A stretch of 61,116 nucleotides of DNA, filler included, from Stramenopiles sp. TOSAG23-6 (GCA_900128565.1; 4 parts of 4 records of this genome joined end to end with filler, not necessarily neighbours in it), one strand, 5' to 3'. Counted from the whole stretch's first letter, positions 3,559 through 61,116 are shown. The notes: generated by a model from the letters alone, not told the origin. Translations and numbers: made by a program.

Positions 3559-5545
3559 ATGAAAATAATGATTATGCGTACTCTTCTAAGTTTTATCATG
3601 TTGCAAGTTAATGCAGCTCGGGAAGGATCACGACCGGCCCTTGTAAACGTTGTTGACGAGATGAAGTTGAACGCTGATACTAAAACTGACAGCGTTGTTT
3701 TTGAAGGATCGGAAGAAGCCTTTGTAGAGGCTGTGCGTAAGCATTTTCCTGAAGGTCCTGAAGTTCCTGAAGTAGAGCGTGAAAAACAAACAAAACCGAT
3801 GGAAATGAGAGACTTGCATTACGTTCACAGTATGTGTGTTACACGTCAAATAGGATGCAAAGAAAACGATGCAGGGACAGACTACGAGGACATACCGATA
3901 GCGGATAAGTGGTGGGAAGTGACATCTCATGAGGTACATAAAAATGTAAAAGAATCCTTCATCAAATGGAAAGCAAAGCAAGAATTGCAAAGCTATGTTC
4001 ATGATTTTAAGGAGAATCAGAATCAGAATCAGTTTGAAGAGAAGATGCCGCTGCTTTTTATGTTCTCCCAGAGTAGTAGTAGTATTAGTAGTAGTAGTGA
4101 TATTAATGATATGGGTAAACGTAGTACTCTTGAGCAAGATAAATTTTTTGATCAGCAGTATAAAATACTCGAAAAGGCACAAATATATCATGATTACATG
4201 AAAACAATTGATGAAGTTTTGAATCAATTCGAAACATCTTATCACGATTGGAAAACATCCGCAACTGGCGGATTTTTGAGAGACTTTGACCCAGAATTAA
4301 AAACATCAATTTGGAAAGCAGACACAGAGAGGGCAGTCGATAATGAAAAATACCCAACCCCCACTCGGTCAACATTGATGCCTTATTTTTGTCAGCTAGA
4401 AATATTTACAAAAGATCCTGAAAATGCTGACTATGCTGTGTGTTTTGAATTCCTAGATCCTAAAAAAAGAAAAAGGATGGGAGCGATGGGAGAAGAGTGT
4501 GAATGTACAGGAGGAAAAAAGATTAAAACATGGAGGGAAATAAAACAGTTTATCTCAATGTTGGGTTTCACACCATATTGTTTTGATACCTTTGATGGTG
4601 ATAGAAAAAAAAAAGTCGACGAAAGATTTCAAAAAAAAAAGGAACAAATCAATTATATATTTGACAGCATAAAACAATATACAACTAAAAATATAGATTC
4701 CATGAAACATTTTATGAAACGAAACAAATTTACTTCATATGGTGATAAATGGGAAAACTTTTTACAGGATCGAAAAAAAGAGGATATGGGACAAGAAAAT
4801 GAAAAAGAAATATTTTTTTCTACAGAACTGTCTTTGGATGAAAGATGTACGTTTTCAAAATTAAATTTTTACCTAAATTTTTTTCATAGGAAATTTTGTA
4901 CCTAATGAATTTCAAGTGTAAATAATGTTCACTACACATTGAAATATTCGAAAAATCTAGAAAACAATCAAATTAAATTTCGGAATGGTGGAGACAAATC
5001 AGTTCTAAAAAACAATGTATATGTAGGGATGTCAATAAAAGACAGGAAAGAAGAAGAGGAATTCCAAGAATCTGTCACTGAACTCAAACAGATGGAAGAT
5101 GTACGTTTTCATCATATATTTTGAATATTTATTTAGTACGAAATCTTGTACCTAACGATTTTTTTTTCTTACTAAAAAAAAAAAAAAAAAAAATTTTTTT
5201 CAAAAAAATACTAATCTTGCAGTAAAGTACGCGATGCGTGTGAATGAACTTTTAAAAAAAGAAGCAACTCCTGAAATAGTCCAAGAACTCGATAGCATCG
5301 TGGAAAAATTACGTCCTCTTGTTGCGCAAAATTGGGCATTATTAAATGTCGAAAAAAATGTACGTTTTTATACTGAATTTCAAATTTAGTTTTTTTTTTC
5401 ATACGAAATTTCGTACCTAACGATTTTTTTATTTCTACATTTTTCACACACATCACATGTTGGAGATTTACCAAAGGAAGTTCAACGACTTGAAAATGCT
5501 CGAAATGAAGGTAAAGACAATAATCCAGAAAAAAAGAATGTGTGA
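3559..5545 (+). CDS. Paralogue of the 728-aa protein; exons 3559-4846, 4940-5100, 5207-5359, 5459-5545 (mirror 9722-11710 -)
   Basis: Shared blocks MEMxDLHYVHSxCVT, SYGxxWENFL, ERLKYSK, MEDNxNLAVKYA, IVEKLRPLxAQxWALLN; removing three introns restores colinearity. Confidence 0.8.
4847..4939 (+). mobile_element. Introner-like intron GT...AT, flanking repeat AT
   Basis: GAA AGA T|gtacg...ctacacat|TG AAA gives ERLK as in the paralogue. Confidence 0.85.
5101..5206 (+). mobile_element. Introner-like intron GT...AT (3' end cleaner in mirror copy 10061-10168 -)
   Basis: GAA GAT|gtacg...cacaaagtat|AAT ACT gives MEDNTNL versus paralogue MEDNRNL. Confidence 0.8.
5360..5458 (+). mobile_element. Introner-like intron GT...AT
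   Basis: AAA AAT|gtacg...catcacat|GTT GGA gives NVGDLPKE versus paralogue NVEDLPKE. Confidence 0.85.
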
Positions 5546-5657
5546 AGAGTACGGTTATAATATTGGTAGAAGTTAGGGTTAGGTTTATAATCTCAAAAGT
5601 ATTCAATAAAAATGGATTTTCGTTTCGCATAAAATTTTATGTTTGCGACATTCCTAG

Positions 5658-5674
5658 TAACCCTAACCCTAACC
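5658..5674 (+). promoter_or_regulatory. Interstitial telomere-like (telo-box-like) motif upstream of the nitrilase gene
   Basis: TAACCCTAACCCTAACC about 130 nt before the ATG. Confidence 0.4.
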
Positions 5675-5800
5675 TTCATGTCACTCGAAATTGACCTGTG
5701 TCTTGACATCACTCGTTCAACCATTTTCACTTTCTTACAAGAATCGTACAAAGAGATTTAGATTAGATTATAGTATTAGTAAATACCAGTACAAACAAAA

Positions 5801-7586
5801 ATGAAGGTTGCATTATGCCAACCGAAGCGTCGTTTACATTCAACGATTGAAGACTCAATAAGCGATCTCGTTGGTTTCGCAAAGCGAGCTCATGCTCAAA
5901 GTGCTGATCTTTTATTACTTCCTGAATTGTTCTTAGGAGGTTATTTGTGTTTTAGAGAGATGTCCCAAAGGGCAGTCTCAGTATATCCTCTCAGCAAAGA
6001 GCTTTCCCGTGTTGGCGAGATTGCTAAAGAATGTCAAGTGGCAATTTGTCTAGGGTATACAGAAGTAGATGATGCGGGGAACTTTTTTAATAGTTGTGGT
6101 CTATTCGATGTAGATGGAAAATTGATTGGAAATTATCGAAAGACTCATCTATTCGGGAAAAGAGAGAAAGCTGTATTCAAATCAGGTGATGTTTTAGGCG
6201 AAGTATTTTGTGTTGCTGGAACAAAAGTGTCCATGCTTATATGTTATGACATTGATTTCCCAGAAGCTGTTCGAAAATGTGTTGTTAATGGAGCAACTTG
6301 TATTTTAATACCAACAGCTAATTTCAAACCATATAACTGTACGTACGCATTCAAAATTGAATTTTTAAACTAAATATTTTTCGTACGAAATTCTGTACCT
6401 AACGATTTTTTTTTTTAACGAAAAAAAAAAAAATAATATTTTTTCACAATACCTTTATCAATAAAAATGTTGTTCCTGTGAGAGCATTAGAGAATCATGT
6501 TTCAATATGCTATTGTAATTGGGCAGAATTTATTGATGAAGATGGTACTGAGATGAATGGAATGTCAAGTATTTGTTCAGGCAATGGAATGAAAATTATA
6601 GAATTTTTTGAGGGAGATAAAGAAGATTTGAAAATTGCGTCAATTCCTAACCCTAACCCTAAGCATCTTACTACAGACGAAGATGATTATCTACGCGATC
6701 GTAGATTAGATTTATATACAACTAACCGAGAATTATCGGATTTATCAGATAGTGAAATGCATGAGTTGTGTAAAAAAATCCCAAAATGTGAATTACATAC
6801 TCATTTGACTGGTTCAATTAGACCTGCAACTCTTCAAGAATTTTGTAATATAAAAATAAAGGCAGGTTTGTTACCAAATGATTGTCTAAAATGTTTAAAA
6901 AATGAAAATTGGGAGGATGCATTTGGAATATTTTGGTTAATTAATAAATCTGTCGATAATTTGGACAAAGTACGACGTTTAACAAAAGAGGCCATTGAAG
7001 ATATGAGAGACTGTGGCGTTGTATACTGTGAATTTCGTGTAGGTTTAAAGCCAATGCCAACGAAAGAAGATTATATCAAGACTCTCATTGATGTGATTGA
7101 AGCAGAAACAATGTCAAGTACAGGAAGTGCAACAAACATTACGATAAAATTACTCGTATCCGTCGCTCGTCATGGAGATGTATGTTTTCATTTTTTTTTT
7201 TTCAAAATTTGAATTTTTTTTCGTACGAAATTTTGTACCTAACGATTTTTTTAAGATTTTTTAAAAAATATTTTTTCAAATTCGAATTTTTTTTCGTACG
7301 AAATGTTGTACCTAACGATTTTTTTAAGATTTTTTTTTAAATATTTTTCCAAAATACATGTTCCGTACGCATCAGAGAGTGTTGATATTGCTATTGATTA
7401 TTTTACCAACTCTGAAAAAGGAAAGGGAATTGTTGTTGGTATTGAACTGGGTGGAATTCCTAAAAAAGGTCATTTTAAAACATTTCTTCCTTTATTTGAA
7501 AGAGCACGAAAAGCTGGATTAAAAACATCTCTTCATTTCGCTGAAAATTTAAGTGATGCAATCGAAGTGGAAGAAGAACAAAATTT
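5801..7586 (+). CDS. Carbon-nitrogen hydrolase (nitrilase family) fused to adenosine deaminase-like domain, 3'-truncated; exons 5801-6338, 6455-7179, 7360-7586 (mirror 7681-9466 -)
   Basis: LPELF, YRKTHLF, LICYDIDFPE, PTAN, VRALEN, then PKCELHTHLTGSIR, VVYCEFR, VVGIELGG, SLHFAE. Confidence 0.88.
6339..6454 (+). mobile_element. Introner-like intron GT...CT, flanking repeat CT
   Basis: TAT AAC T|gtacg...cacaatacct|TT ATC restores PYNFINKNVVPVRALEN. Confidence 0.85.
7180..7359 (+). mobile_element. Introner-like intron GT...AT with duplicated core
   Basis: GGA GAT|gtatg...aaaatacat|GTT CCG; two hairpin+CTAAC cores. Confidence 0.85.
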
Positions 7587-7613
7587 GTACATTTTCATCA
7601 TTACTTTCAATTT

Positions 7614-7633
<20 letters not shown>
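7587..7633 (+). mobile_element. 5' part of an introner-like intron cut by the palindrome centre
   Basis: AAT TT|gtacattttc then poly-T. Confidence 0.65.
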
Positions 7634-7653
<20 letters not shown>

Positions 7654-10600
7654 AAATTGAAAGTAATGATGAAAATGTACAAATTTTGTTCTTCTTCCAC
7701 TTCGATTGCATCACTTAAATTTTCAGCGAAATGAAGAGATGTTTTTAATCCAGCTTTTCGTGCTCTTTCAAATAAAGGAAGAAATGTTTTAAAATGACCT
7801 TTTTTAGGAATTCCACCCAGTTCAATACCAACAACAATTCCCTTTCCTTTTTCAGAGTTGGTAAAATAATCAATAGCAATATCAACACTCTCTGATGCGT
7901 ACGGAACATGTATTTTGGAAAAATATTTAAAAAAAAATCTTAAAAAAATCGTTAGGTACAACATTTCGTACGAAAAAAAATTCGAATTTGAAAAAATATT
8001 TTTTAAAAAATCTTAAAAAAATCGTTAGGTACAAAATTTCGTACGAAAAAAAATTCAAATTTTGAAAAAAAAAAAATGAAAACATACATCTCCATGACGA
8101 GCGACGGATACGAGTAATTTTATCGTAATGTTTGTTGCACTTCCTGTACTTGACATTGTTTCTGCTTCAATCACATCAATGAGAGTCTTGATATAATCTT
8201 CTTTCGTTGGCATTGGCTTTAAACCTACACGAAATTCACAGTATACAACGCCACAGTCTCTCATATCTTCAATGGCCTCTTTTGTTAAACGTCGTACTTT
8301 GTCCAAATTATCGACAGATTTATTAATTAACCAAAATATTCCAAATGCATCCTCCCAATTTTCATTTTTTAAACATTTTAGACAATCATTTGGTAACAAA
8401 CCTGCCTTTATTTTTATATTACAAAATTCTTGAAGAGTTGCAGGTCTAATTGAACCAGTCAAATGAGTATGTAATTCACATTTTGGGATTTTTTTACACA
8501 ACTCATGCATTTCACTATCTGATAAATCCGATAATTCTCGGTTAGTTGTATATAAATCTAATCTACGATCGCGTAGATAATCATCTTCGTCTGTAGTAAG
8601 ATGCTTAGGGTTAGGGTTAGGAATTGACGCAATTTTCAAATCTTCTTTATCTCCCTCAAAAAATTCTATAATTTTCATTCCATTGCCTGAACAAATACTT
8701 GACATTCCATTCATCTCAGTACCATCTTCATCAATAAATTCTGCCCAATTACAATAGCATATTGAAACATGATTCTCTAATGCTCTCACAGGAACAACAT
8801 TTTTATTGATAAAGGTATTGTGAAAAAATATTATTTTTTTTTTTTTCGTTAAAAAAAAAAATCGTTAGGTACAGAATTTCGTACGAAAAATATTTAGTTT
8901 AAAAATTCAATTTTGAATGCGTACGTACAGTTATATGGTTTGAAATTAGCTGTTGGTATTAAAATACAAGTTGCTCCATTAACAACACATTTTCGAACAG
9001 CTTCTGGGAAATCAATGTCATAACATATAAGCATGGACACTTTTGTTCCAGCAACACAAAATACTTCGCCTAAAACATCACCTGATTTGAATACAGCTTT
9101 CTCTCTTTTCCCGAATAGATGAGTCTTTCGATAATTTCCAATCAATTTTCCATCTACATCGAATAGACCACAACTATTAAAAAAGTTCCCCGCATCATCT
9201 ACTTCTGTATACCCTAGACAAATTGCCACTTGACATTCTTTAGCAATCTCGCCAACACGGGAAAGCTCTTTGCTGAGAGGATATACTGAGACTGCCCTTT
9301 GGGACATCTCTCTAAAACACAAATAACCTCCTAAGAACAATTCAGGAAGTAATAAAAGATCAGCACTTTGAGCATGAGCTCGCTTTGCGAAACCAACGAG
9401 ATCGCTTATTGAGTCTTCAATCGTTGAATGTAAACGACGCTTCGGTTGGCATAATGCAACCTTCATTTTTGTTTGTACTGGTATTTACTAATACTATAAT
9501 CTAATCTAAATCTCTTTGTACGATTCTTGTAAGAAAGTGAAAATGGTTGAACGAGTGATGTCAAGACACAGGTCAATTTCGAGTGACATGAAGGTTAGGG
9601 TTAGGGTTACTAGGAATGTCGCAAACATAAAATTTTATGCGAAACGAAAATCCATTTTTATTGAATACTTTTGAGATTATAAACCTAACCCTAACTTCTA
9701 CCAATATTATAACCGTACTCTTCACACATTCTTTTTTTCTGGATTATTGTCTTTACCTTCATTTCGAGCATTTTCAAGTCGTTGAACTTCCTTTGGTAAA
9801 TCTCCAACATGTGATGTGTGTGAAAAATGTAGAAATAAAAAAATCGTTAGGTACGAAATTTCGTATGAAAAAAAAAACTAAATTTGAAATTCAGTATAAA
9901 AACGTACATTTTTTTCGACATTTAATAATGCCCAATTTTGCGCAACAAGAGGACGTAATTTTTCCACGATGCTATCGAGTTCTTGGACTATTTCAGGAGT
10001 TGCTTCTTTTTTTAAAAGTTCATTCACACGCATCGCGTACTTTACTGCAAGATTAGTATTATACTTTGTGAAAAAATATTTTTTTTTTTTTTTTTTGTAA
10101 GAAAAAAAAATCGTTAGGTACAAGATTTCGTACTAAATAAATATTCAAAATATATGATGAAAACGTACATCTTCCATCTGTTTGAGTTCAGTGACAGATT
10201 CTTGGAATTCCTCTTCTTCTTTCCTGTCTTTTATTGACATCCCTACATATACATTGTTTTTTAGAACTGATTTGTCTCCACCATTCCGAAATTTAATTTG
10301 ATTGTTTTCTAGATTTTTCGAATATTTCAATGTGTAGTGAACATTATTTACACTTGAAATTCATTAGGTACAAAATTTCCTATGAAAAAAATTTAGGTAA
10401 AAATTTAATTTTGAAAACGTACATCTTTCATCCAAAGACAGTTCTGTAGAAAAAAATATTTCTTTTTCATTTTCTTGTCCCATATCCTCTTTTTTTCGAT
10501 CCTGTAAAAAGTTTTCCCATTTATCACCATATGAAGTAAATTTGTTTCGTTTCATAAAATGTTTCATGGAATCTATATTTTTAGTTGTATATTGTTTTAT

Positions 10601-13600
10601 GCTGTCAAATATATAATTGATTTGTTCCTTTTTTTTTTGAAATCTTTCGTCGACTTTTTTTTTTCTATCACCATCAAAGGTATCAAAACAATATGGTGTG
10701 AAACCCAACATTGAGATAAACTGTTTTATTTCCCTCCATGTTTTAATCTTTTTTCCTCCTGTACATTCACACTCTTCTCCCATCGCTCCCATCCTTTTTC
10801 TTTTTTTAGGATCTAGGAATTCAAAACACACAGCATAGTCAGCATTTTCAGGATCTTTTGTAAATATTTCTAGCTGACAAAAATAAGGCATCAATGTTGA
10901 CCGAGTGGGGGTTGGGTATTTTTCATTATCGACTGCCCTCTCTGTGTCTGCTTTCCAAATTGATGTTTTTAATTCTGGGTCAAAGTCTCTCAAAAATCCG
11001 CCAGTTGCGGATGTTTTCCAATCGTGATAAGATGTTTCGAATTGATTCAAAACTTCATCAATTGTTTTCATGTAATCATGATATATTTGTGCCTTTTCGA
11101 GTATTTTATACTGCTGATCAAAAAATTTATCTTGCTCAAGAGTACTACGTTTACCCATATCATTAATATCACTACTACTACTAATACTACTACTACTCTG
11201 GGAGAACATAAAAAGCAGCGGCATCTTCTCTTCAAACTGATTCTGATTCTGATTCTCCTTAAAATCATGAACATAGCTTTGCAATTCTTGCTTTGCTTTC
11301 CATTTGATGAAGGATTCTTTTACATTTTTATGTACCTCATGAGATGTCACTTCCCACCACTTATCCGCTATCGGTATGTCCTCGTAGTCTGTCCCTGCAT
11401 CGTTTTCTTTGCATCCTATTTGACGTGTAACACACATACTGTGAACGTAATGCAAGTCTCTCATTTCCATCGGTTTTGTTTGTTTTTCACGCTCTACTTC
11501 AGGAACTTCAGGACCTTCAGGAAAATGCTTACGCACAGCCTCTACAAAGGCTTCTTCCGATCCTTCAAAAACAACGCTGTCAGTTTTAGTATCAGCGTTC
11601 AACTTCATCTCGTCAACAACGTTTACAAGGGCCGGTCGTGATCCTTCCCGAGCTGCATTAACTTGCAACATGATAAAACTTAGAAGAGTACGCATAATCA
11701 TTATTTTCATTGTATTCAAGTGGAATTGAGAGTGGCGTACAGTAAGTTGTGTGCTTTTGTGTTTCTCCTTCTTGAGATCAGTAATCAAGAGGGACAATCA
11801 AAGGGAAATATTTGATTGTGTGTCAAATAAATAATTTCCAAATTGTCTCCTCGAAAATGCCTCGAAAATCTCCGAGTTCGTCGAGAGGTGTAGAGAGAGA
11901 GAAAAAAAACAGGAATGTTCCACAACTGAAGTGGTTGATTCAGACAAAGAACTAAGTTTTTATTTTTTTTAAAGAAATATAAAAAAGCAAACTCAGTTTA
12001 ATTGACCTTTTTATCCCATTATTAGAATTTGTAATGTATCTATCAATTGATGAGAGACGTACCAAAACTTTGTACTTAAAGGTGTATCCATGGAATCCAA
12101 TGATATAAACGTGCAACACTACGTACCTAAATCCCATTTTCATTACTACATTTCATCATTTTCATTTGATCGTAAGGTTTTGTGCTTTTTGTGATGATGT
12201 TTCACTTTGGTTGTAGACGATTTGTAATGATGATGATGATGATGAGGCTCACTTTTGAAACGATGTGCATTGACGGATCTATTAGCTTCTTCGAGGGGTT
12301 TACATTGTAGAGTGCATGGATGAAATGTCCACCCACTATTCCTATTCTCACATGCACCATGCAACTTCTTATGAAGATGTAGCATATCGATGTGCTTCCA
12401 GTGACCATCTAATCTTGTCTTCATCTTTAGTAAGTCCACACAAATATGACAAGGAGGTTCTGTCGGATATTGTCCGCATCTTTGCGCTTCCTCCCTGGTA
12501 GCTTTGAAATATTCAGGAGGATCTCGCTTAGCTTCAAGTTCAAAACGACAACCGAAACGAGGCAAACGATGAAAGAGTGTTTTGGCGGCTTCTTCTAGGG
12601 CATCACGACGATCATCATCGGATCCAACTTCAGAATATCCTTCTATTATTTGTTCTGTGGCATCACATCCTACATGTATTGGTTCTTCGTCTTCATCGTT
12701 CATTCGAGCTTTGTCAAGTCGTTCTTGTTCTTTTGGTAAATCTTCAACATTTTCTTTGGCATTTAATAATGCCCAAGTTTGCGCAGCAAGTGGACGTAAT
12801 TTTTCCACAATTTTCCTGATTTCTTCTACAATTTCAGGAGTCGATTTTTGTTTTGAAAGTTCTTGAATTTGGAACGCATATTTCACTGCAAGATTTCGGT
12901 TATCTTCCATTACTTTGAGTTTTTTGACTGNTTCTCGGAATTTCTTTTCTTCGACTTGTTGTTTCTCTGTCATTCCAGATAAATCTCTGTCTTTAAGAAT
13001 TGGTTTGTTTGAAGTTTTAAGAAACGGAATTTGTTCTTCAGTTTTAGAATATTTCAATCTTTCCTCTGGTGTAAGTTCGACGCTATTTTCATGTCTCTCA
13101 CGAATGCTTCTTTCATCCCCGGTTGTTTTGCCATCAAGCTCCTTTTGTCTTTCTTTTTCTCGTTGAGAAACAAGAAAGTTTTCCCACTGAGCACCATAAG
13201 AATTGTCATTGGAGAATGCAGCTACCGCTGATAATTTGGCATCCTCGTTAGGGGTTTGTCTTGCAAGTTTCAATCGACTGAACTCTTCGTCAACTTTTCT
13301 GTTAAATATTGCTCGAAAATCAGGCACTGTATATGGACTTACGGACCGCCACATTTTAAATACTTCTTTCCATGTTGAATTTGTGATTAGATCAAGTGTT
13401 CCTTGAGCCAAATCCAAACCTGACTCTTTCATGTAAAATTTTACTTTTAATACTTCGTCTGGGGTAAGCTCTAATTCACTTACTGTTTGCTTCGCTAGTC
13501 CTTTGAGTCCACTATCAGATCTTTTTCTTTTCGCCTTTTCGACATTGTCGTCACTCCACGTTTTTGTTAATTGACCCAAAAATGTTTTAAAGGTCATACC

Positions 13601-15368: not shown

Positions 15369-15370
15369 CT

Positions 15371-37029: not shown

Positions 37030-37036
37030 ACTAACC

Positions 37037-47680: not shown

Positions 47681-47774
47681 AAAAAAANGAAAAAANGAAA
47701 NGAANCCATGATCAGTGTAGAAGGAGATCTGACTTTCAGTTGATTATAAATTAATTTACTTTATTCATAATATT

Positions 47775-49361: not shown

Positions 49362-49679
49362 ATGCGCATCTTTGCTGCCGTAAGACGCATAGCTACACAT
49401 AGTAGAGGCAGTGCTCTTCACACTAGTAGAAAGTCACATCGAGGTCCTCACTTTGGAAACGTTGGTGGAGAGTCTATGAGTCAAGGGTCAATGGGTTCAA
49501 CTATGGGCGGCTCCGGTAGAAGGTCCATGGGCTCAGATAGTTTAGGAGGCTCTGGGACATTCCGTACTCATGCTCAACGCAATGCTTTACGGCGTGCGAA
49601 AATTGGTGGTATGGTAGCTTTAGTTGATTCACGTGACTTATTCCTTGCATGCTTGGGCGATGACGACGACGGAACGTAA
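49362..49679 (+). CDS. 105-aa protein with mitochondrial-presequence-like N-terminus and DDDDGT C-terminus
   Basis: Arg/Ser/Ala-rich acid-free N-terminus; higher GC than flanks. Confidence 0.6.
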   Translation: MRIFAAVRRIATHSRGSALHTSRKSHRGPHFGNVGGESMSQGSMGSTMGGSGRRSMGSDSLGGSGTFRTHAQRNALRRAKIGGMVALVDSRDLFLACLGDDDDGT

Positions 49680-50431
49680 GTTATTTTTTACCTCATACAC
49701 TTTGTGTTTCTTTCTTCCAAAATAGTTTCCCTTTGTTTCATTTAGTAAGTATACACCTCACCGAGTTCTCCACATTCCATCATATCATGAGATTTAATAG
49801 TTAACGAGTAATTTGCGGTTTTATTTTCTCATATACAGATAATAAGTTGGCTGTCATGTTCCTCTTTTGCTCGTGAGCTCTGGTCTCTCTATGGGTATTA
49901 GTAGTACTCTCAGTCTTATTGCTGGTCTATTTGGTGTGATATGTCAGTTCTCACAAAGCCCACTCCACCTGCGTTGTCGATTATTTGGAATCATGTGTCT
50001 ATAAATACGAACGATTCTCCTGTATTAAGTATTACTCTCACACAGGACGGTGACGCCATCTCCATTTTAAATATTTTCATTTGCAATTTTCATCTTCAAA
50101 ATAAATTAATATATTAGAATTTAGATTGTTTTTATTCGATAATATATTCTACTTTGAAACGTACTATTCAACCTAGCCGGCTTGCTTGCATGATCGAATT
50201 AGTGGCCTAAATGTAAGATATGCAGTTAACATCATGGTCATGGTCATGGAAACAAACGAATTCATCGAGCGGGCTAGTCACACGTGGCATTAAAATTTAA
50301 AATACTACTTTGGAATATACGGGTACCGGTATAAATGCTACCTTGGTAGTCGAGTCACTTTTGTCCAACGACCGATTAAACCCTTTATTGCTGGACATCG
50401 ATCGATCAATCGATCAATAGCGGATACTCTA

Positions 50432-51424
50432 ATGAGTGATGTCGAAGAAGAATATCAAGTTCCACTTGAAGCTTTCCCAAAGGAAGGTCCTCGGCACTAC
50501 ATATTTCGCCGAGTTCATGGGGAAGATGTACTTCAAAATGTGAAAGAATTGAAATGTGAGGGCGGTCTTGAAGTCTCTTCTAAAGGGGATAGCGCGCTTC
50601 TTTACGCCAAGTTTGGAGAGGAAGGGGGGCATGGTGGTGAAATTCGTGCTATCATGTACAACATAGATCCGGAAGATCTGAGTTACAACAACTCCAGAGA
50701 AGTTTTTCCGAGCCACAAAAAAGCATTCTTTCGTGCTGACGCTTCAACAGCTTGGGTTGACTACGGCGTGTGGAACGGTCCCATTCACCGCAGTGGAGGG
50801 CTCGGTTGTGGATTCATAGGTCAGGTTTGTGAGTTTGGTGCCCATTACGCAGAAGCAGGGAAAGTGGGTGACCTGGCGGAAGATCCTTGGTCATTCAGGG
50901 GAATTACTGCACTTATCAGTGTGGTGGACGAGCCACCGATTGAATCGATTCCTGAAGAACATCGACATTTAATACCACCTGAATTTAAACCGCTACCGAA
51001 AGGTACCCTTTTATTCACTTTATATTTCGATGATGGATCAGGTCACTATGGTAAAAGCGCGCCTATTCCTTTAAATCTTATGTTTGAACCAGTAAAGGAA
51101 TGTGATGCTACTGTATCAGTTGTACGTCTTCTTTTTCAATTTCGAACTTATTTTTTTTGGTACGTAATTTCGTACCTAACAATTTTTACAAAAAAAAAAT
51201 TCACAATATATGTACCGCCCCACGTTGCGGAGCATATCCGGAGCATAAAGAAAAATAAGAAAAAAGATCAAAAAGTTGGAGGTGACAATCATGAAAAAGT
51301 TAGAGATGACAATCAGATGAAAAAAAGTATCAATAAAAGAGACGCATCTACTCAGGAATTTCAACCAAATCAAAAAATGAAGCAAAATAATCCAAACAAA
51401 AAAGCTAAACATAATATAAAATGA
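50432..51424 (+). CDS. Hypothetical protein; exons 50432-51121, 51212-51424
   Basis: Long ORF with coding-like composition; reads through a 90-nt family intron. Confidence 0.7.
   Translation: MSDVEEEYQVPLEAFPKEGPRHYIFRRVHGEDVLQNVKELKCEGGLEVSSKGDSALLYAKFGEEGGHGGEIRAIMYNIDPEDLSYNNSREVFPSHKKAFFRADASTAWVDYGVWNGPIHRSGGLGCGFIGQVCEFGAHYAEAGKVGDLAEDPWSFRGITALISVVDEPPIESIPEEHRHLIPPEFKPLPKGTLLFTLYFDDGSGHYGKSAPIPLNLMFEPVKECDATVSVVRLLFQFRTYFFWYVISYLTIFTKKKFTIYVPPHVAEHIRSIKKNKKKDQKVGGDNHEKVRDDNQMKKSINKRDASTQEFQPNQKMKQNNPNKKAKHNIK
51122..51211 (+). mobile_element. Introner-like intron GT...AT, 3n and stop-free (exon ends TT)
   Basis: TCA GTT|gtacg...tcacaatatat|GTA CCG with core. Confidence 0.75.
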
Positions 51425-51612
51425 AGATTTTCACATCTACAAAAGAAATGATTTAGGTACAAAATTTCATAGTAAAAAAATACTTTCAAATTCAAGCTGT
51501 TGCATCAAAATATAAATTTTATTTATTTGTCTCTGAAATTTCTTCATTTTTTTTCAATTTCAATTTTTTTTATTTGTTTTTCGTACAAAATTTTGTACCT
51601 AGCTAACAAAAT

Positions 51613-52665
51613 TCACTCAGTTTTTAAAAACGATACAAACTTTTCTAATACATTTGGAGGCGAAATACCAAATGCATAACCTACGGAGCACAAATTTTTC
51701 GCTAGAGCAGCTGATAATACTTTGTGAAAAAATATTTCAAGAAGAAAAAAAATGTTACTTTTGAAATATTTTGAAAAAAAAAAAAAAAAAAAAAATGTTA
51801 GGTATGAAATTTCTTACGAAAAAAAAACGATGAAACGTACATGGAATTCCAATCTTATTTCGTTCTCGACTCTCATTCATCTCCTTTTCTCCCGGTACTA
51901 AAATAGGACCTGGCGCTTCTTCAGCAAGTGGTAGCCCATGCAAAATATCGCACAAAGTTTGCATTCTTTCAGCATAATTTTCAGTTCCAAATTTTGCAGG
52001 ATCAACACAGATAAAATATTGTAAAAAAATATTTCAAAAACATTTTTTGATTTTTTTTTGTAAGGTACGAAATTTACTATGAAAAAAAAATGAAATGAAA
52101 GAAAGCAATTTACAAACATTGACCTAATTCCGCTGGTTCTTTTCTGTCTTTTGTATTTGGATTCATAACCATACCCAGTTGTGTACTAAATTTAGCTGAG
52201 TGACCTGCAAATACACCACAGAGCATTTCAACCATCATGTATCATGAAAAAATATGTCAAATTCGAAATTTGTTAAGTATAAAAAATGTATACTAAAAAA
52301 ATTTGAAATTGAAAAAAATAAATGTGAAATTGGAATGGATGATAAAAATATACATTCCAAGACAATATCCTTTATAACCATTGCCATGTATTGTGAAATA
52401 AAATGTTTACAGTTTGAATTTGTTAGGTACCAAAGTTTGTAACAAAATGTAGTACCAAAAAAAAAAAAAAAACTCAGGTACAAAATTTTGTACGAAAAAA
52501 AAATACAGGTGTTTCGGCTCCACCCAATGGAAGTAAGCCTCCGCCAGCAAATACTTCTTTGCACACACGAGTAGGACGACCTTTGCTGTCGAGACCCCAT
52601 TGAGAGTTTTTTGGTAGAGGTTTTCCCTCTCGCATATAAACTTCAACTTTACCTAATGGAATTAC
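51613..52665 (-). CDS. Ldh_2 (type-2 malate/L-lactate dehydrogenase family) C-terminal half; exons 52665-52507, 52385-52354, 52236-52114, 52013-51841, 51716-51613
   Basis: GKVEVY, WGLDSKGRPT, LLPLGG, GYKGYCLGMMVEMLCG, LGQCFICVDP, ILVPGEKE after splicing. Confidence 0.85.
51717..51840 (-). mobile_element. Introner-like intron GT...AT
   Basis: CCA T|gtacg...cacaaagtat|TA TCA. Confidence 0.8.
52014..52113 (-). mobile_element. Introner-like intron GT...TT
   Basis: TGT TT|gtaaa...tacaatattt|T ATC restores GQCFICVDP. Confidence 0.85.
52237..52353 (-). mobile_element. Introner-like intron GT...AT
   Basis: GGA AT|gtata...catgatacat|G ATG restores LGMMVE. Confidence 0.85.
52386..52506 (-). mobile_element. 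Introner-like intron GT...AT, two cores (exon ends CT)
   Basis: ACA CCT|gtattt...cacaatacat|GGC AAT. Confidence 0.8.
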
Positions 52666-52770
52666 ATATTGAAAAAATATATTTAAAGTATACAACAACG
52701 TTAGTTTTTGTACCATTACCAAAATTAACAAAATTAGCAAAATTCGTTAAAAAAACAAAAATTAAAATGT

Positions 52771-55700
52771 ATCGTGTTTATCTGTATTTGAAGAAACAAA
52801 ATTTGTATTTTTTTCATTTTCTGTAGATTTAGATATATCAGCAGAGGTGTGTAGAATAGACACTAACTTCGCATTGCCAATAACACCCATCCATCCTGAC
52901 ATGTCTGACTTTCCTGATTGGGTGATAACACCAACAGACAGATCGGGCTCACTTGATGCAATTTCATCTTCAATTCTCACAGAAAAACGCCAAACATGAA
53001 TGCCCGAATGATATCCTGAGGAAGCTGCCATTAGTTTCCATCGCTTTGACACAGTAGTTAAATCTGGTTCATCATTAAATGTTATTTCATTGATTCGATT
53101 TGGCAGTCCATGACAATCACTCATTTTTTTAGTCGTAGTTTGTGGTTCTGGAGTATGGGGACGACAATCTGACGACACAGTTGCAGAAAAATCGGGTGGC
53201 ACTCCAAACATATCGGATATATCAAGATCTCTTGTATTTTCACTGGCACCAGACCTCCAAAGTCTATACTGTTGTATTGTAGAGTCTGATTGTGACGCTT
53301 CTTCGTCTTCAATAATGTTTCGGGTTTCTCGTACATCGTCTCTATTGCCGCTAAATGAAAGTGATGCATCTTCCCAAGTCAGTTCATTCAATCTTTCATA
53401 ATCTCCCTCACCAGTATCATTTGTAATATCTTCATCTAATGCTTTCTCGTTTTCTGTATCATTTTGTGGTATATTTTTTGACACCCGACTTGTCCGAGAA
53501 TTCATCATAAAAGTTCGATTCCCATTTTCAAGAGAAAAAATTGCAGAGTTCTTATCTCTAGCATTGGAATCTTCGGGTCTAGGTACAGGGGTTGACATAC
53601 ATGGATGCATCATAAATTTTGGATCAAAATGAAGCCTTTCCTTCAGTCGTCGGGAAGGTGTAACAAGGAAACTGTTATTATAATTTTCGGTACGAGAATT
53701 TTGAAAAGTAATGTCGATTTCTCGATATGTATAAAAAGTAGGTAAACCAAAGCCTGTAGAACGACTTTTCGGCAATTGATGTATTGTGAAAAATATTTTA
53801 ATTTAACATTAGTTAGGTGAAAAATTTTCTATGGAAAAAAATAAATAAAATTAATGATGTAAACGTACATGGGATGGATACTCGGCTCGTTTTTTATCTG
53901 TATTACCTTGAGAATAACAGTCTTTAATAATTTCCATAATAGAATTATCATATTGCTCCTTGCTTTGATGATTTCGATCATACCAAGGATCACCGCTACC
54001 AGAACTTTCCGATGAAGTAATTCTATAATTTTCACCTTCTTCAAGACAAACAGTCTTGTTCTTTTTATCCGTTCTGCAGCATGATTCATGCATTACATCA
54101 TGTATTAGTTCTGAATATGCATAACCAAGTTCATCTCGAGGACTATTATCATCAATACTTACTTCCACTAGAAGTTCACGAGTACGACATAACCACAATC
54201 TCACAACATGAGTCCGCTGTAATTGACCCCCATTTACATCAGGGTTCACTGCGCGACCAAGAGCTTTCAATTCAACACATTTACGTGCAACAAATTCAAA
54301 CCCAACCTGTCCGTCCCAGTTATCTCTCACACCTGTATACAATACCTTAAATGTATTTGCCAGTGCAGAAGGTCCAGCAGACTCTTCCCATATCATCGCA
54401 TCAACACACTCGAGTGCATCTTTAGATTGTTTTGCGGCTGGTAGCATTTCAACCACTTTAGATACTGAGGCACAAAGTTGTACTATACTTGGTAACATTA
54501 CGGATGCGAGCCATAAACGAGATGACAAAAGAGATAACGCAGTTGCAAAGGTCGGTAGTAAAGTACCAACGAAAGAGCCTTGTAATAATCGCTCTACTAA
54601 AACAGGCGGTGCTCCGCAATCGAGTTGTTTCCGCGCCGTATCCAACAGTCGTCTACAAGAATATAATAATAAACTCCCATAACGCCTCAGAACTTGACAC
54701 GGTGGTTCAGTAGCAGCGCGACAAGATGCCGCTAGTGAAACTAAATGCCTTTGGTATGCATAGAGCAGAGCATCGGCAGATGCTATCAGAGTGCATTCAT
54801 CTTTTTTTAATTTATATTTTACATTCATCTTATCGCTACCAATAAACGAAGCTTCATCATTACTTGTGTTTTTTTCCGACGATGCATTAATATCAAAAAG
54901 AGACTTCTCAGACACCATAGAAAAAAGCATTGAAAGTAGGTCCGCAATATGCAACAATTCTTCCTGTGAATAACCAATACCATTACGAGTTTTTTTTATT
55001 GGGCGTATATTTTCATCTGCAATAGATATACTTTTTTCTTTACTCAGTATCTCTTTTTTGCCAGATCCATTAGTTGGTTTGATACTATCGATTGGATTTA
55101 CCGAAACTTCAGCAATGTAATCTATAGGTAAAAGGGACACAACGCCTTTTGCGGATGTAGAGAACCGCATCAAAAGACGGTTGAGTAATGCATATCTAGG
55201 TGAATTAATATCATATGGTGTATTTCTATGTTCTTTTATCAATGATGCTAATAGCTCGAAGCGCTGTCTACTTGATGGGTACAATAATTCTAATCCAACT
55301 TCAACCGCATTTACAGCCTCGAGTCGAACATAATGCATAAGCTTATCATTTCCAATTGCATACTTCAATGTAGAATTTAATATTTCAAACGCAGAAGAAC
55401 TTAATCCAACTTCTTCGGGTCGGACGTGAGCGTCTATCAACCTTTGTAAATGAAATGATACAAGTCGGAGGAGCGAGACACAGATAGATTCAGCCTGTTC
55501 TCTATCATTGTCTTCATTATCATTGTTTTCAGGTATATTCTCAGCGAGCGGCAGTTGCACATCAAGTAGCCTACGTATTTGTGAAAAAGCAGCTAGAGAA
55601 ACCTGGAGACAATATGGAAGTTCTAAATCTATAGTAGATGGGGAATATTCATCTGATATTCTCCCTTTAGCCTTTTGTTTATTTACTGCGACCGATTTCT

Positions 55701-58700
55701 CAAGTTTTCCAGGATCCTTCGAAGTATTTATATCAAAACCGCAATGGATTGCACTCAGTTTGACAACGACATTCAGGATAGATTCGGCCACGTCACCACG
55801 GGTCGGTCGACCATCCGATCGGCGTGAACATAATAGAGACCGAATCTTCATCGGCGGTGAAGGTGGCGACAATGAGAGATGTGGTGATAACCACAATGCT
55901 AGAGGACACACTTTATCTATTATCCGATGACGTTTTTTTCCATTTGAGATAGGTGGAATACACGTAACGCGGATTATTAATTTCGAAACTCCGCTGATAT
56001 CGACAGAAAACGTACAGAGTCTTTGATAATGGGATATGTCAATACCATCTGAGGAACTATTTTGTTTTGAAGTAGACCTAGTAAACACAACACGGCTTTG
56101 AGAACTTGTTACATGCGCTTCCCACAATAGTTTACTGTCACCACTAATTGAAAAACTCATTATGGAGTTATTCTTACTATCATCTTCGAATGCGACGCGG
56201 CCTTGAAAAGATCGAAATTTTGTATTAGTTAGATCATAAGATGCCACAAGGGATGGGAAAGTATTGTGAGAATTCCAAAGATTTTTCCCTCCTTTTCGTT
56301 TCATTCTCAGGAAATCTGCGTCTTTTTCGGGAAGAAACATACAAAGGCTATTCGTCGGAACAGCAATACCATCTACACGAATTTCTTTTCTACCTAAATG
56401 TTTCATAAGTTCTTGAGCCGAACAGTTACAACATATAGCAAGATTATCTACAATATCCGAAGAAACTTGTAAAACCTCCGTTGTTTCGGTTTCTTTTTCA
56501 GTCACATCAGTATCTAGCATTACAGTTGGCACAACTCTTGAAAAACCATCATGAGTTTGTCTTAAAATATTATTGGTACCTATCTCACTGCCGTGTGAAA
56601 CGTTATTCTCAGTGTCTCCTCTTTCGAAATTATCAGTACCAGTCGTGATTGGCCATTTTGCAACAGGTGGTAGTTCAATTACTGATGATACAGCATCAGA
56701 GGTTGTACACTTTGATTGGTCGCCATTTTTAAACATATTGATCTTTACAGGAAGGTCTATCAACGAAGCTGCCGAATACGGTAAAATATTTCGTGGTGCG
56801 CCTATTCTTTCAACTTTAAGCAATGTTACCGCCCTTCCAGTGCCATAAAATGTGCACGCTGGAAATATTTCTTCTCCATTTCCCGTGACACCCGTGAACG
56901 CTATTCCTTGTGATTCACCATTTACCGAGAAAGAAATTGTACCCTTATCAAGGTCTAACTCAACACGTACTACATCACCTGGATGCCATTTACTCATAGG
57001 CTGAATTACCCTTCGTGAGCGTGAATATAAGTTACCGTTATATGCTCGATACATCCATAAACTTTCACTTCTTTCGTAGTTAGAATCAGAGACTGGTCGA
57101 ATAGCTGCTCCAACACAAGTCATTTCATCATTAAGTTTGTCACTTTCCAACCTAAATTCCCACGCAAACCTACCAGTACCAGAGAAGCCTACATCAACCA
57201 AAGCGTGCGAATTTGAGCTACTATTACTATGTACCTGTTGACCATTACTCCGCAAATCAATAGATGCAGAAGAAGCCTGTCGATCAAAAGATGCTTCTAT
57301 CAATTGAGAACCAGATGAATTTTTCATACTACAAAACTGAGACTTGGAGGTACGTGAACGCAACCTCTTCTCTTCGTCACAAATATCATTAATGTTTACT
57401 AGTAGTGAGAGTGCTGCTCGATTTTCTCGCGCAAAAGTTGCATCTGTTATATTTTTTTCTAATATTTCTTTAGGTGCTGAAGTATGTTGCGATGGAGATG
57501 CAAATTTGGAACTTGGTCGAAAGAAAAGATTTCTCGACGATTCAAGTAAAGTTGAAATAAACTGAATAAGCAAAACAAAGGAAGCGGAACCTGACACTAA
57601 TTGTAACATTAGAGACAAAGACAAACACGAAATAGCACGACTAGATTTTCCACAGCGTATTTTCATGATATTTCGAGTTACTGCGATCTTTTCCTTGTGG
57701 GTCATAGTACGAGCTTGTACAGTATTCTTTTGCAAACTATGGATAAGTTTATCAATTTCATCAGTTTCGCCATTGTCGTTAGAATTTTGAAGTGTTTCCT
57801 TTTCATTTTTCTTTGGATCAATATTTTCGTCTTCTTTTTGTCTAATTTCCTGTGCATTGACAATATGCGATAGCCATTCTTGCATCGATTGTAGAGAATC
57901 CGCAGGTGCAGTACATACTGCATGTGGCACAACACTTTTGACGACTACTTCTTCTATCCCGAAACAATTTTTCCTATTCAATGGGTGAAATCCACTCATG
58001 CGCAAACGCAAATGACGTGCAGATATACCATGCGCTTCTAAACGCTGCGTTCCTTTATTACAGAGTATTAAACACACTCTCTGCCATTGACCATCTTCAT
58101 CATCTACAGGTGGTACAGTGTCGGAAGCATCCGAGATGTCAAGCGCACAATGTGAAGGTATTTGTGTTGAAGCCCAACGAACAACTACTGAAGAAATAGG
58201 ATGAACTCGGTCAAGGGAAACTCTCCAATACGCTGGATCGTTTGGATTTCGACGTCTTTTTGATCTCCATGCTCGATTTCTGAGGCTACCTCTTTCACTC
58301 CGATTCGCACCAACAGAAGCACTTGCACGTAAATAAGATAGCGGCGATAAAGTACTCGCAGCTAACGAAGATGCTGAAGCACGGTCAAGCCATCTTGAAG
58401 TCCAACGACTAGATGTTTCCCCAAAGATTCGAGTTCTGCTACTATTATTGCTTGCAGTCGTAGTGTCACGCTCTCGAGAACTTGATAATGAACTGATACC
58501 ATCCGCGTCACTCGCTCTTTCTCTTAACGCATTTGCAGGTATTGTAAATCCAGTTGTCGTAGGTTCTGACAGAAGTGGTGATGAACTGCTTCTGCTCCTT
58601 TCTACAAATCCACTTTCTTCTGCGGTCGTTGTCGAGGCTGCAATGTGTGCTTGAAGTCGCGACAGATTATTACCACTGGTTTCCCCCCATAATTGTCTGA

Positions 58701-59691
58701 ACATACGGCTAATTCCCATTTCTTCACTTCTGACGTCACCTCGGACTCTTGCCGTCGGAGGTTCATCTTCCATCTCAGAAGATCTAGTTACACTCGAAGT
58801 GGAAATATCCCTCCATTGTAAAGCCATTGCCGCAGAATTTTCTGCACTTTCAACCGAAGATGCAACAGCATTAGATGGATCAATTATCAACTCAACTTCA
58901 GGAAAAGCAGGTGTTGGCGACCATTCTGAAAATAGATACGCAGGTGCAGAAGGTCCCGAACCTGAAACAAAACCTATACTTATCGCTTTTGCTACGGAGA
59001 CTATTGCAGGCCAAAGAATGCTAGGATCAGCAGAATAGTCATATGACTTTACTAATGTTGCAAGCATGGCAATACCAACTTCTTTGAGTTGAGCGTGTGG
59101 TAGAGGTTCTCCTCGGCGCTTGTGGGCAAAAGGTCTCTGTGCATGACTTCGCTCTTTTTGAAGAAAACGATGCACTACTTGCAAAACTTCCACTCGTTGC
59201 TTTTGCGCAATTGAAAATACCGAAGATGTTGTACGCAAGGAGCTTAGGTACTCTAATATACGTAACACTGTTACTTCCTTTTTAGACTTTTCTTCTCTCA
59301 CTCCTGCGTTACGGTGTAGGATAGAGTTGTTTACACGGTGTTGCAACTTATTCAATGAGCTATTTGTGTATTCCAAGGAATAAGTAGGAAATATAGGTTT
59401 ATTCGTTGCTTCGGATATACGATTAGATTTTGAATATAATAGAGTATCCATATTTTGCGAGTTGTTTATATTTGATCGAAAATTCATGGCAGTATTTGTT
59501 CTGTTCTGTGGACCAAGTAAGTTATCGAATCTATTTGGGTTTGTGGGACAAGACAACCGAGACTGAAAAGTGCTTGAAGATGCAAAAGCGACGAGGTTAT
59601 CGCCATTTCTGAGAAAGCTCTGCTCTACAACAGTACCATCAGTGAATCTACCATCATCACTTCCTCGAGCATTGGAAGCGGATATTCCCAT
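52771..59691 (-). CDS. N-terminal part of a giant SPRY / galactose-binding-like / NPCBM-like domain protein (HERC/HECT E3-like architecture); exons 59691-53869, 53778-52771
   Basis: SPRY: GRFAWEFRLE...TCVGAA...GDVVRVELDLDKGTISFSVNGESQGIAF; NPCBM-like YDL...FQGRV...VDISGVSKL; second SPRY start GIHVWRFSV; no HECT domain in the window. Confidence 0.72.
53779..53868 (-). mobile_element. Introner-like intron GT...AT
   Basis: TCC CAT|gtacg...cacaatacat|CAA TTG joins the 1975-aa and 337-aa ORFs in frame. Confidence 0.85.
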
Positions 59692-60372
59692 GACGAAGGA
59701 AAGATGAGTCTCCAAGTAGAACTCTTCGTGTCGTATGCGAGGAATGCAATGCAATGCAAAATTACAATCGAAAATCATAGGAACGGAAACGGAGGAGCGA
59801 TTTTGAAATACTTCTACGTAATAGCCGCTAGATATTTAGGGTTAGGGTTGTGTGGTCAGTGAATTATCCTTGACCACCAGTCAATACGCACGACGAGTAC
59901 GAGTCAAGAGTCGAGAAAAAAATTGTTGAACTTCGAGAGTGTCTTTTACTTTTATTTTTTTCTTTTACATGTTGGCACCATTGTTACAGCGAGATATAGT
60001 ATGTATTTCGCTGTTACAATGCTTCCGACAGAATGATTAAACAGCGGTTATGTTTCTGTTTGGGGAACCACCGTTTGCTTCGTTGTTTTCGTTTTTCACC
60101 ATTACCGCTTTTTTAGTTCTTATCATTTTTTTTTGTTTCCGTTAAAAAGATAGAATGACGACGAAAAACTACCTGCGCAGGGGCTTGTAGAGCTAAACGA
60201 TCCCTTCGAGGAAAGTTTTTCTCAATGAAAAAACAAAGTCATGCAAAATTGTTTCGGACTATCTTTGAAACTTTATTTTCCAACTTCCCGATTTCTTCAT
60301 ATAAATTCTTTTATTGTTGTTTGTATAATAATAAATAAAAATTAAACTTGAAAAAATATCCTCGCTTCTGTA

Positions 60373-61065
60373 TTATCTACATACTTTTGACGAAGTTGTA
60401 CAATGTATTAACTCAACTTGAAGTCCCTTTCCGAGACCATCAGCATAATCAGAACAATATTCTAACCCACTCAACTGCTTGTCAGCGACGAGCGTTCGAT
60501 CATCTCCGATAGGCAAACGTATTGTAATGTACTTAAACGGCAACTTATATGATCCCTCCATTTCTCGACATAGAGCTCGTGCATCTGTTATGACGACCTG
60601 TGTGGCGTTAGATATAGCTTCGACTGACACAATTGTATATGAGTCTTTTAAGTAAGCTAACGTTTCTCCATCATCTTCAAACCATTGGAAGGAAGCTTTG
60701 CCGCCTGCAGGAGGAATTCCAAGGACAACTTCGCGATGGTTCTTACCAACATGATGAACGCCTTCAAATGACCCTCCACTCAGGACAAGCCCACCACCCT
60801 CTCGAAGTAAGATGGGTGCACCACAACACTGAATCCCTGCATAGCTTGATGTATTTTGGAAAAATATTTCAAAAAAATATTCGTTAGGTACAAAATTGCG
60901 TACGAAAAAAAAACTCGATTTTTTTTGTATGAAAAAAAATAAAACATACATACACCATCTAAATGATTGTTATCTACATTTCTATCCAGTGGACAGTTGA
61001 CAGAAATAACACAACCACCTTGGAACCAGCTACCAGAATGTAAATCAAGCCATGAAGTTGTTGAC
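60373..61065 (-). CDS. Glycoside hydrolase family 31-like C-terminus, 5'-partial; exons 61065-60950, 60848-60373
   Basis: WLDLHSGSWFQGG...CPLD, PILLREGG, FEDDGETLAY. Confidence 0.7.
60849..60949 (-). mobile_element. Introner-like intron GT...AT
   Basis: GTA T|gtatg...ccaaaatacat|CA AGC. Confidence 0.85.
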
Positions 61066-61116
61066 ATGTATTGTAAAAAAAATTAAATTCGAAATTTGTT
61101 AGGTACAAAATTTCGT
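61066..61116 (-). mobile_element. 3' part of an introner-like intron ending AT
   Basis: core...tacaatacat|G TCA. Confidence 0.75.

Follow-up and report, generated by a model that had tools for sequence, protein, structure and literature searches.

A family of putative introner-like introns in a stramenopile, with textbook 5' signals and 3' ends that covary with the upstream exon

Relation to described transposon-born introns

Introns born from transposons are already known, and here we describe a family of putative introns of this kind from Stramenopiles sp. TOSAG23-6 (GCA_900128565.1), in a stretch of 61,116 bases that is referred to below as the window. The inserts of this family interrupt unrelated genes and end, on their 3' side, in a dinucleotide that usually repeats the last two bases of the upstream exon rather than in AG. 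In the introners of Micromonas, Aureococcus and Chrysochromulina (Gozashti et al. 2022, PMC9860276; 2025, PMC12130899) one splice site is carried by the element and the other is obtained from the target-site duplication. These elements resemble the family in the window in being non-autonomous and inserted in sense across many genes, usually with no change to the length of the mRNA (PMC9860276, PMC12130899). However, their splice sites are canonical GY/AG and their duplications 3–9 bp long (PMC9860276), whereas here the duplication would be 2 bp and AG is found at the end of one of 21 complete copies. The 2025 survey dropped families with unfamiliar splice sites that lacked transcript support (PMC12130899).

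The introners of Amoebophrya (Farhat et al. 2021, PMC7789003) are likewise repeated intronic elements in a marine protist, with direct repeats of 3–5 nt overlapping the boundaries, non-canonical and variable terminal dinucleotides, and a proposed origin from non-autonomous transposons. They are described as having inverted repeats of 8–20 nt that form a hairpin joining the ends, and no 5' consensus (PMC7789003), whereas the copies in the window have a 2-nt repeat, conserved GTAYGT and CTAAC motifs and ends that are not paired. Introns of Fritillaria borealis (Henriet et al. 2019, as described in PMC11282704; PMC13326754), for which there is RNA evidence, share with our family target duplications at their boundaries and 3' ends other than AG (AG-AC, AG-AT); their origin is ascribed to miniature transposons, and a modified U2-type spliceosome is thought to remove them. 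Fritillaria is an animal, and the 5' end of its introns (AG) is also non-canonical, whereas our family, known from DNA alone, has a canonical 5' end and deviates from the norm at its 3' dinucleotide only. The nonconventional introns of euglenids and hemistasiid diplonemids have non-GT-AG borders, direct repeats at their junctions and a suspected transposon origin (PMC12621601, PMC6221363), but they are reported to have neither a U1-complementary 5' end nor a pyrimidine tract and to rely on pairing of their ends (PMC12621601), in contrast to the strong 5' site, branch site, T-tract and unpaired ends of the family described here. A lead from the same sources, that marine single-cell genomes of diplonemids are predicted to have non-canonical introns, was dropped in view of the canonical 5' and branch signals in the window.

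Among eukaryotic transposons, the ISL2EU group of PHIS cut-and-paste elements is the only one described with a hallmark 2-bp 5'-AT-3' duplication (PMC4482050). Its target is A/AT/T, its inverted repeats usually start with GG, its autonomous members carry a DDE/THAP transposase and a YqaJ open reading frame (ORF), and in that survey it was confined to animals (PMC4482050). The AT duplication fits the family in the window (exon end and intron end both AT in 14 of 21 copies, intron end AT in 17), but an A..T bias is lacking from the flanks (4 of 21 copies have A at -3, and 5 of 21 have T following the duplication) and the ends start with GT. Membership of ISL2EU was rejected, as the AT duplication alone fits.

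Neither a GT..AT intron family nor non-canonical introns in marine stramenopiles (MAST) were found described in the literature searched (titles, abstracts and some main text, to which supplements may add); in the part covered of one MAST single-cell genomics paper, the word 'intron' occurs twice only, both times in the methods. The novelty would lie in transposon-born introns that combine textbook 5' and branch signals with a non-AG 3' end set by a 2-bp duplication.

The family, its ends and the genes restored by removal

The window is composed of four eukaryotic contigs of ~15.2 kb each, joined by N44-TTAATTAATTAA-N44 spacers (15269–15368, 30563–30662 and 45857–45956). Contig 1 (1–15268) and contig 3 (30663–45856) are palindromes over their whole length, with 99.9% and 99.99% identity, respectively, to their own reverse complements. 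The palindromes are centred near 7634, in a T-run/A-run, and near 38260, inside a family copy, and are most likely amplification or assembly artefacts. Since genes and features in these contigs appear twice, copies were counted in one arm only, which restricts the counts to unique DNA (approximately 1–7634, 15369–30562, 30663–38260 and 45957–61116).

The family consensus is GTAYGT...T-run...GTACGAAATTTYGTAC-CTAAC...TTCACAATAY+NN, and copies are modular, running from GTAYGTTTTCA... through a T-run, GTACGAAATTTYGTAC-CTAAC and a variable A/T stretch to GAAATATTTTTTCACAATAY and two further bases. The core GTACSTAAY occurs 31 times in the window against 1.06 expected (maximum of 4 in 100 shuffles), a count that takes in palindrome duplicates and two non-family matches. 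An nhmmer search of the unique DNA with a family profile built from 16 copies identified ~26 copies or fragments, of which 20 are complete; together with one on a metagenome contig, L004, these make up the 21 complete copies tabulated. Complete copies are 89–180 nt long, have an AT content of 76–85% and are all in sense orientation relative to the flanking ORFs. A first-pass annotation of the window had reported about 25 related inserts, 20 of them complete, of the same length range and always in sense, and these figures were reproduced. Its nine unrelated host genes are indeed unrelated, but we counted 10 ORF sets, two of which carry partial copies only. Copy density ranges from seven in 1.7 kb of the PhyH gene to zero in a 15-kb ORF on contig 2. 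Contigs 3 and 4 both start and finish inside family copies, as expected of a high-copy repeat that breaks assemblies, and the core is internally duplicated in tandem in two copies (7180–7359 and 52386–52506).

The copy on L004 lies in an unrelated gene, has AT at both the exon end and the intron end, is in frame, and shares 84% identity over 70 nt with the copy at 46154 (BLAST match 46149–46213). It is the one true family member among four loci in public metagenome contigs that matched a 19-nt core pattern; the same pattern gave one chance match only, in a Bacteroidales metagenome-assembled genome, when compared with prokaryote genome contigs.

Counts at the 5' end of the 21 copies are G+1 21, T+2 19, A+3 21, Y+4 19, G+5 17 and T+6 21. 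As a correction to the earlier account, two copies do not start with GT but with GCATGT (46866) and GAAAGT (36221). The branch motif is CTAAC in 16 of 21, the remainder having CTAAT, CTGAC, CTTAC or TTAAC, and the distance from this motif to the 3' end varies from 32 to 81 nt. Counts at the 3' end are a pyrimidine at -3 in all 21, A at -2 in 18 and T at -1 in 20; this end resembles the usual YAG with U replacing G, and the sole AG copy ends in a perfect CAG. The palindrome arms of contig 1 disagree inside one intron (5185–5215 versus 10061–10100), with the family 3' motif in one arm only, which demonstrates that local sequence errors exist in homopolymer-rich stretches. A further correction concerns the copy at 5101, which is corrupted in that arm; its family 3' end is present only in the arm at 10061–10168.

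Among the 20 complete window copies, the intron ends given earlier (16 AT, 2 TT, 1 CT and 1 AG) and the agreement with the upstream exon end (17 of 20 for the dinucleotide, 20 of 20 for the last base) were obtained again. With the L004 copy, the last two intron bases are AT in 17, TT in 2, CT in 1 and AG in 1, and they equal the exon-end dinucleotide in 18 of 21 (AT/AT 14, TT/TT 2, CT/CT 1, AG/AG 1), including all four non-AT ends, while the last base is identical in 21 of 21. When the pairing was shuffled 100,000 times, the mean number of matches was 11.9 and P(≥18) was 1.3e-4. These results support covariation between the 3' end of the intron and the end of the upstream exon, of the kind that a 2-bp target-site duplication would produce.

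To assess the effect of removal on the host genes, each copy was taken out, starting with the G of GTAYGT and ending two bases after ..TAY, and the frame was checked over 90-nt flanks. An open frame resulted in 20 of 21 cases, and the last copy, at 52237, is in frame as judged by eye. Eight junctions are colinear with homologues at the residue level: one in nitrilase, one in adenosine deaminase and six in PhyH. At the nitrilase junction (CT/CT), tblastn gave high-scoring segment pairs on both sides in 30 of 38 homologues. Their ends abut exactly in 8, leave one split-codon residue in 5, leave two residues that the window also supplies in 8, overlap in 7 and leave six residues in 2; in 21 of the 30 the ends are thus 0–2 residues apart, with the window giving an equal number of residues. 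The junction sits within a PY(S/N)F motif common to the closest eukaryotic homologues. At the adenosine deaminase junction (AT/AT, 180 nt), residues 19–151 of the solved chain 8qch_A match the upstream exon, and residues 156–212 match the downstream exon from its residue 4.

For PhyH, one 48-aa exon used as a query retrieved full-length relatives at 65–71% identity, and another, compared with the whole library, retrieved 188 relatives. The exons, inserts aside, are intact, at ~56% identity to full-length homologues. The spliced model has 321 aa and no stop, shares 187 of 333 aligned columns with P0122, and aligns colinearly and without gaps across each of its six junctions with P0122, P0124 and P0128–P0132. 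Tallied over 152 homologues, the proportions without gaps within 3 aa on either side, among the homologues spanning each junction, were 61/61, 39/62, 36/77, 97/99, 71/120 and 92/118. Nitrilase and PhyH, two of the three genes said earlier to be restored, are accordingly upheld. The third, Ldh_2, appears to be restored approximately, the support here being profile coordinates: two exons match positions 178–223 and 267–323 of 333. Searching Pfam and PDB exon by exon had too little power for most of the short exons.

That one repeat family created introns in many unrelated genes is supported by our analyses. We consider it likely that these are introner-like introns, that is, copies of a non-autonomous DNA transposon of ~90–120 bp, very AT-rich, each removed with one 2-bp duplicate. 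The element would enter with a 2-bp target-site duplication, mostly AT, and bring a yeast-like 5' splice site (GTAYGT) as its first bases, a T-run, small palindrome and CTAAC branch site in its middle, and a T-rich tract and TTCACAATAY at its 3' end. From sense copies, the spliceosome would excise the element and one duplicate and so return the mRNA to its pre-insertion sequence. Neutral removal of this kind needs the element plus one duplicate, and consequently one terminal intron dinucleotide would be whatever the target was. The duplicated dinucleotide would form the last two bases of the intron, which would end in Y-A-T or Y-N-T and not Y-A-G. Where the dinucleotides are equal (18 of 21), cuts in the registers GT..AT, TG..CA and AT..AC give identical mRNA. 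The most likely register is GT-AT, in which the 5' cut precedes the invariant G of GTAYGT and the 3' cut falls 2 nt beyond ..TAY, because that G and the full GTAYGT consensus argue for a 5' cut there and hence for a 3' cut after the duplicate.

Transposition, splicing at the RNA level (from frames and homology), the register and the AG-independent choice of the 3' site are what we infer from these patterns. Of the earlier proposal that a transposon with a 2-bp duplication made introns en masse, the family and the covariation hold as observations. How the 3' end would be recognised is a more tentative matter, and the earlier proposal that this lineage defines the site by CAATAC draws on conservation of the motif only. 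The distance from CTAAC to the 3' site is not fixed. The conserved TTCACAATAY block would be the only candidate landmark for the splicing machinery to read. A spliceosome of ordinary type might pick the 3' site without AG, two bases past ..TTCACAATAY, accepting Y-A-U and even Y-N-U, a suggestion in which we place slightly less than even trust. Pairing that would join the intron ends was not detected by RNAalifold (0 pairs on 13 rows, 2 of the 13 being mis-bounded), the ends were unpaired in 11 of 12 single folds (z-scores +0.14 to -3.07), and the central palindrome GTACGAAATTTYGTAC showed no compensatory changes in 25 rows, 2 of which are chance matches.

Weighing the alternatives

Several observations weigh against splicing of transposon copies as proposed above. 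The terminal inverted repeats are just 4–5 nt (GTAY/RTAC), shorter than the 6 nt or more used as a criterion in PMC9860276, and the copies are 70–85% alike rather than near-identical. The ORFs scanned contained no transposase, and no empty site was observed; for this reason transposition and duplication are drawn from the covariation in the four non-AT cases. The three mismatches (TT/AT twice, CT/AT once) all have AT as the intron end, a pattern that selection on the 3' site would fit as well. Because of this, and because position -3 is always a pyrimidine, selection may favour ..YAT (Y-A-U) at the 3' end in addition to the duplication. Near 17 of 21 copies there are in-frame GY-AG pairs within 12 or 40 nt on either side, and for two of these copies (46367 and 60849, both shifted +4/+4) they entail no net length change. 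Lastly, the only public protein found for one orphan host gene, the Logan-derived P0001 (370 aa, against window 50294–51424 with one residue differing in the shared part), reads through the intron at 51122–51211. P0001 shows that the insert is present in a second data set and says nothing on splicing.

The best surviving alternative, though an unlikely one, has the same element and mRNA with cuts in an AT-AC register, two bases upstream of GTAYGT and right after ..CAATAC, which would make AT-AC introns of most copies. Its product is identical in the 18 copies with equal dinucleotides, both copies that do not start with GT still read AT..AC, and AT-AC terminal pairs work in U12-type and rare U2-type introns (PMC12621601). 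Against it, the intron would begin with A in 15 copies, with T in 4 and with C in 2, whereas the G two bases further on is invariant in all 21, and in the GT register GTAYGT forms a full 5' site of the U1/U6 type. In the AT-AC register, 15 copies would end in C and 6 in T. U12-type introns have an RTATCCTT 5' motif and a branch motif roughly 10–26 nt from the 3' end. In either register the family starts with GTAYGTTTT in place of that 5' motif, and its CTAAC lies outside that range at 32–81 nt, and assignment to the U12 type was rejected on both counts.

It is improbable that an ordinary GT-AG spliceosome acts at cryptic canonical sites instead, such as a GTTTTC donor 4 nt inside the element and the next exonic AG. 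The resulting proteins would carry small deletions or substitutions, as does P0127, the annotated coding sequence of the same PhyH gene (window 46080–47440), whose shared exons are 100% identical to ours and which uses cryptic canonical sites at three PhyH junctions. P0127 and the spliced model agree at the canonical AG copy, and elsewhere P0127 picks GT-AG pairs. In doing so it gives up residues that are conserved in homologues (VQ replaces YSEE, and AY replaces NRAED), translates part of one intron and stops inside another; its alignment scores against P0122 and P0124 are 694 and 639, compared with 865 and 814 for the spliced model with the same start. Judged by these homologues, P0127, with canonical sites only, mis-predicts the PhyH gene.

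The same rival meets difficulties at the other junctions. Apart from the two copies without net length change, the canonical alternatives near the remaining 15 of 17 all insert or remove codons (net change +27 to -48 nt). Four of 21 copies have none at all, among them the one at 47181, whose junction NPY/DPIHK is gap-free in close homologues. At the nitrilase junction each canonical alternative drops 8–12 codons that homologues align, and the product can be obtained solely by the registers GT..CT, TG..CC and CT..AC, which therefore excludes a canonical pair there. In 1 of 21 copies the first AG past the branch motif is also the 3' end that is needed and, on these alignments, an AG acceptor cannot give the restored products. 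Homology thus speaks for failure of canonical splicing in genes with homologues; for orphan genes it would be excluded by analogy only. As a class, the canonical U2-type GT-AG intron fits the 5' site and the CTRAY branch motif, but was rejected as its AG end is present in 1 of 21.

Removal at the DNA level, comparable to that of ciliate internal eliminated sequences bounded by a short direct repeat, is very improbable. The inserts are short, AT-rich and flanked by 2-bp direct repeats, and their precise removal restores genes. However, excision from DNA needs no sense bias, yet all 21 copies are in sense, and the conserved 5' splice site and branch motif would have no role. Excision from TA to TA would also add two residues at the nitrilase junction, which is colinear in 21 of 30 homologues, the ORFs use the standard genetic code throughout, and P0001 shows one of the genes, insert included, in another public data set. 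The poorest explanation, that the inserts are never removed and mark dead gene copies or an amplification or assembly artefact, can cite the read-through ORF P0001 and the two of four contigs that are artefactual palindromes with arms differing in homopolymer-rich stretches, but is hardly credible given exons that are otherwise intact at ~56% identity with full-length homologues, frame restoration (20 of 21) and a sense-only orientation that dead genes would not keep, and the presence of the family on the unrelated metagenome contig L004.

Host genes, neighbouring features and implications

The coordinates of the family copies and fragments are collected in Table 1.

Table 1. Copies and fragments of the intron family in the window; ends are given as exon end/intron end
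Position	Strand	Ends	Feature	Support or remark
4847–4939	+	AT/AT	Family intron, coiled-coil-like ORF (3472–5540)	Open frame after removal
5101–5206	+		Family intron, 3' part corrupted in this arm, 3' boundary approximate	Intact copy is in other arm
10061–10168	-	AT/AT	Intact other-arm copy of 5101 intron	Shows family 3' end
5360–5453	+	AT/AT	Family intron	Tabulated complete copy
6339–6454	+	CT/CT	Family intron, nitrilase (CN_hydrolase) part of fused ORF	Homologue segment pairs abut across junction
7180–7359	+	AT/AT	Family intron, core tandemly duplicated, adenosine deaminase part	Profile match; homologue colinearity
30681–30780	-		Partial copy, 5' part, exon end AT, cut by contig end	Profile match
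35772–35872	+	AT/AT	Family intron, contains N bases	Tabulated complete copy
36221–36330	+	AT/AT	Family intron, variant 5' end GAAAGT	Tabulated complete copy
38199–38236	-		Partial copy at centre of contig palindrome	Profile match
45957–46007	+		Partial copy, 3' part, ends AT, contig start; first intron seen in PhyH gene	Profile match
46154–46245	+	AG/AG	Family intron, only canonical GT-AG copy, PhyH	61/61 homologues gap-free
46367–46512	+	TT/AT	Family intron, PhyH	Frame; homologue colinearity
46651–46739	+	AT/AT	Family intron, PhyH	Frame; homologue colinearity
46866–47036	+	AT/AT	Family intron, GC donor (GCATGT), PhyH	97/99 homologues gap-free
47181–47280	+	AT/AT	Family intron, PhyH; canonical in-frame alternative absent	Frame; homologue colinearity
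47422–47514	+	TT/TT	Family intron, PhyH	Frame; homologue colinearity
51122–51211	+	TT/AT	Family intron, orphan gene; no in-frame stop	Read-through ORF P0001 exists publicly
51428–51497	-		Short (47-nt) family-derived piece after Ldh_2 stop codon; possibly a short GT-AG intron in the 3' untranslated region	GTATTT...CTAAA...TTTTGTAG, tail TGTAG
51560–51610	+		Family fragment between two convergent genes	Profile match
51717–51840	-	AT/AT	Family intron, Ldh_2-like gene; variant 3' motif CACAAAGTAT offers AG 3 nt upstream	
52014–52113	-	TT/TT	Family intron, 5' end GTAAAT, Ldh_2-like gene	Frame
52237–52353	-	AT/AT	Diverged family intron, Ldh_2-like gene; 32-nt upstream exon	Frame checked by eye
52386–52506	-	CT/AT	Family intron, duplicated core, Ldh_2-like gene	Frame
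53779–53868	-	AT/AT	Family intron, between 1994-aa and 346-aa exons of SPRY-domain gene	
60849–60949	-	AT/AT	Family intron	Frame
61067–61116	-		Partial copy, 3' part, ends AT, contig end	Profile match

The host genes are eukaryotic and include an ORF with CN_hydrolase and adenosine deaminase-like domains, a Ulp1 protease, a DUF4116 protein and a giant SPRY-domain gene; the PhyH dioxygenase and the Ldh_2-like gene were recognised from single exons, and all window ORFs are read by the standard genetic code. The nitrilase and adenosine deaminase-like domains lie in one continuous frame (5801–7634, +), which is apparently a fusion protein, and the contig palindrome truncates this gene within the deaminase domain. 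The Ldh_2-like gene (51610–52780, -) spans profile positions 178–323 of 333 only, and the N-terminal half of Ldh_2 was not found there. Ahead of its first recognisable exon is a family-like 3' end, TTCAATATGT, for which no matching 5' end could be identified, and the stop codon of the SPRY gene lies ~100 nt upstream. A comparison of the DUF4116 protein with the ESM Atlas gave no usable match, and Rfam and tRNA scans of the window gave none; marker genes are likewise absent from it.

Contig 2 is occupied by one open frame of 5,097 codons (15317–30610, +) with no family intron, a GC content of 44% compared with ~33% elsewhere in the window, and a strong GC skew of 0.22–0.28. No Pfam family was identified in the 3,753 residues scanned. 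It may encode a repetitive surface protein or be derived from another genome.

Telomere-like 12-mers (AACCCTAACCCT or its complement) are present at 5659–5670, 6649–6660 and 59836–59847, and at 44845–44856 in a duplicated arm, a recurrence in ~45 kb that is hard to ascribe to chance. NPNP is encoded by the one at 6649, which falls in the C-terminal part of the nitrilase domain, immediately before the deaminase domain, at a position gapped in the closest homologues. Inverted copies around 5570–5675 bracket ~80 nt between two genes. Three seawater metagenome runs from one study contain 57–86% of the words sampled from a 10-kb stretch, and in two seawater metatranscriptome runs the share of sampled words was 0.13.

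If RNA confirms the junctions, the family would represent a clean natural test of how dispensable the 3' AG is, as its 5' site, branch site and pyrimidine tract follow the textbook and only the last base (U for G) differs, unlike in Fritillaria, Amoebophrya and the euglenids, where several signals change together. A transposon with a mere 2-bp duplication could then make introns that cost the host nothing. Should the 3' site be chosen independently of AG, any sense insertion of a 2-bp-duplicating transposon would be silent at once, which would explain why all fully bounded introns in the window belong to one family. Public gene models of this organism based on GT-AG would also be wrong wherever family introns occur, such that its gene models may be systematically affected, and gene counts and pseudogene claims for such genomes could be affected likewise.

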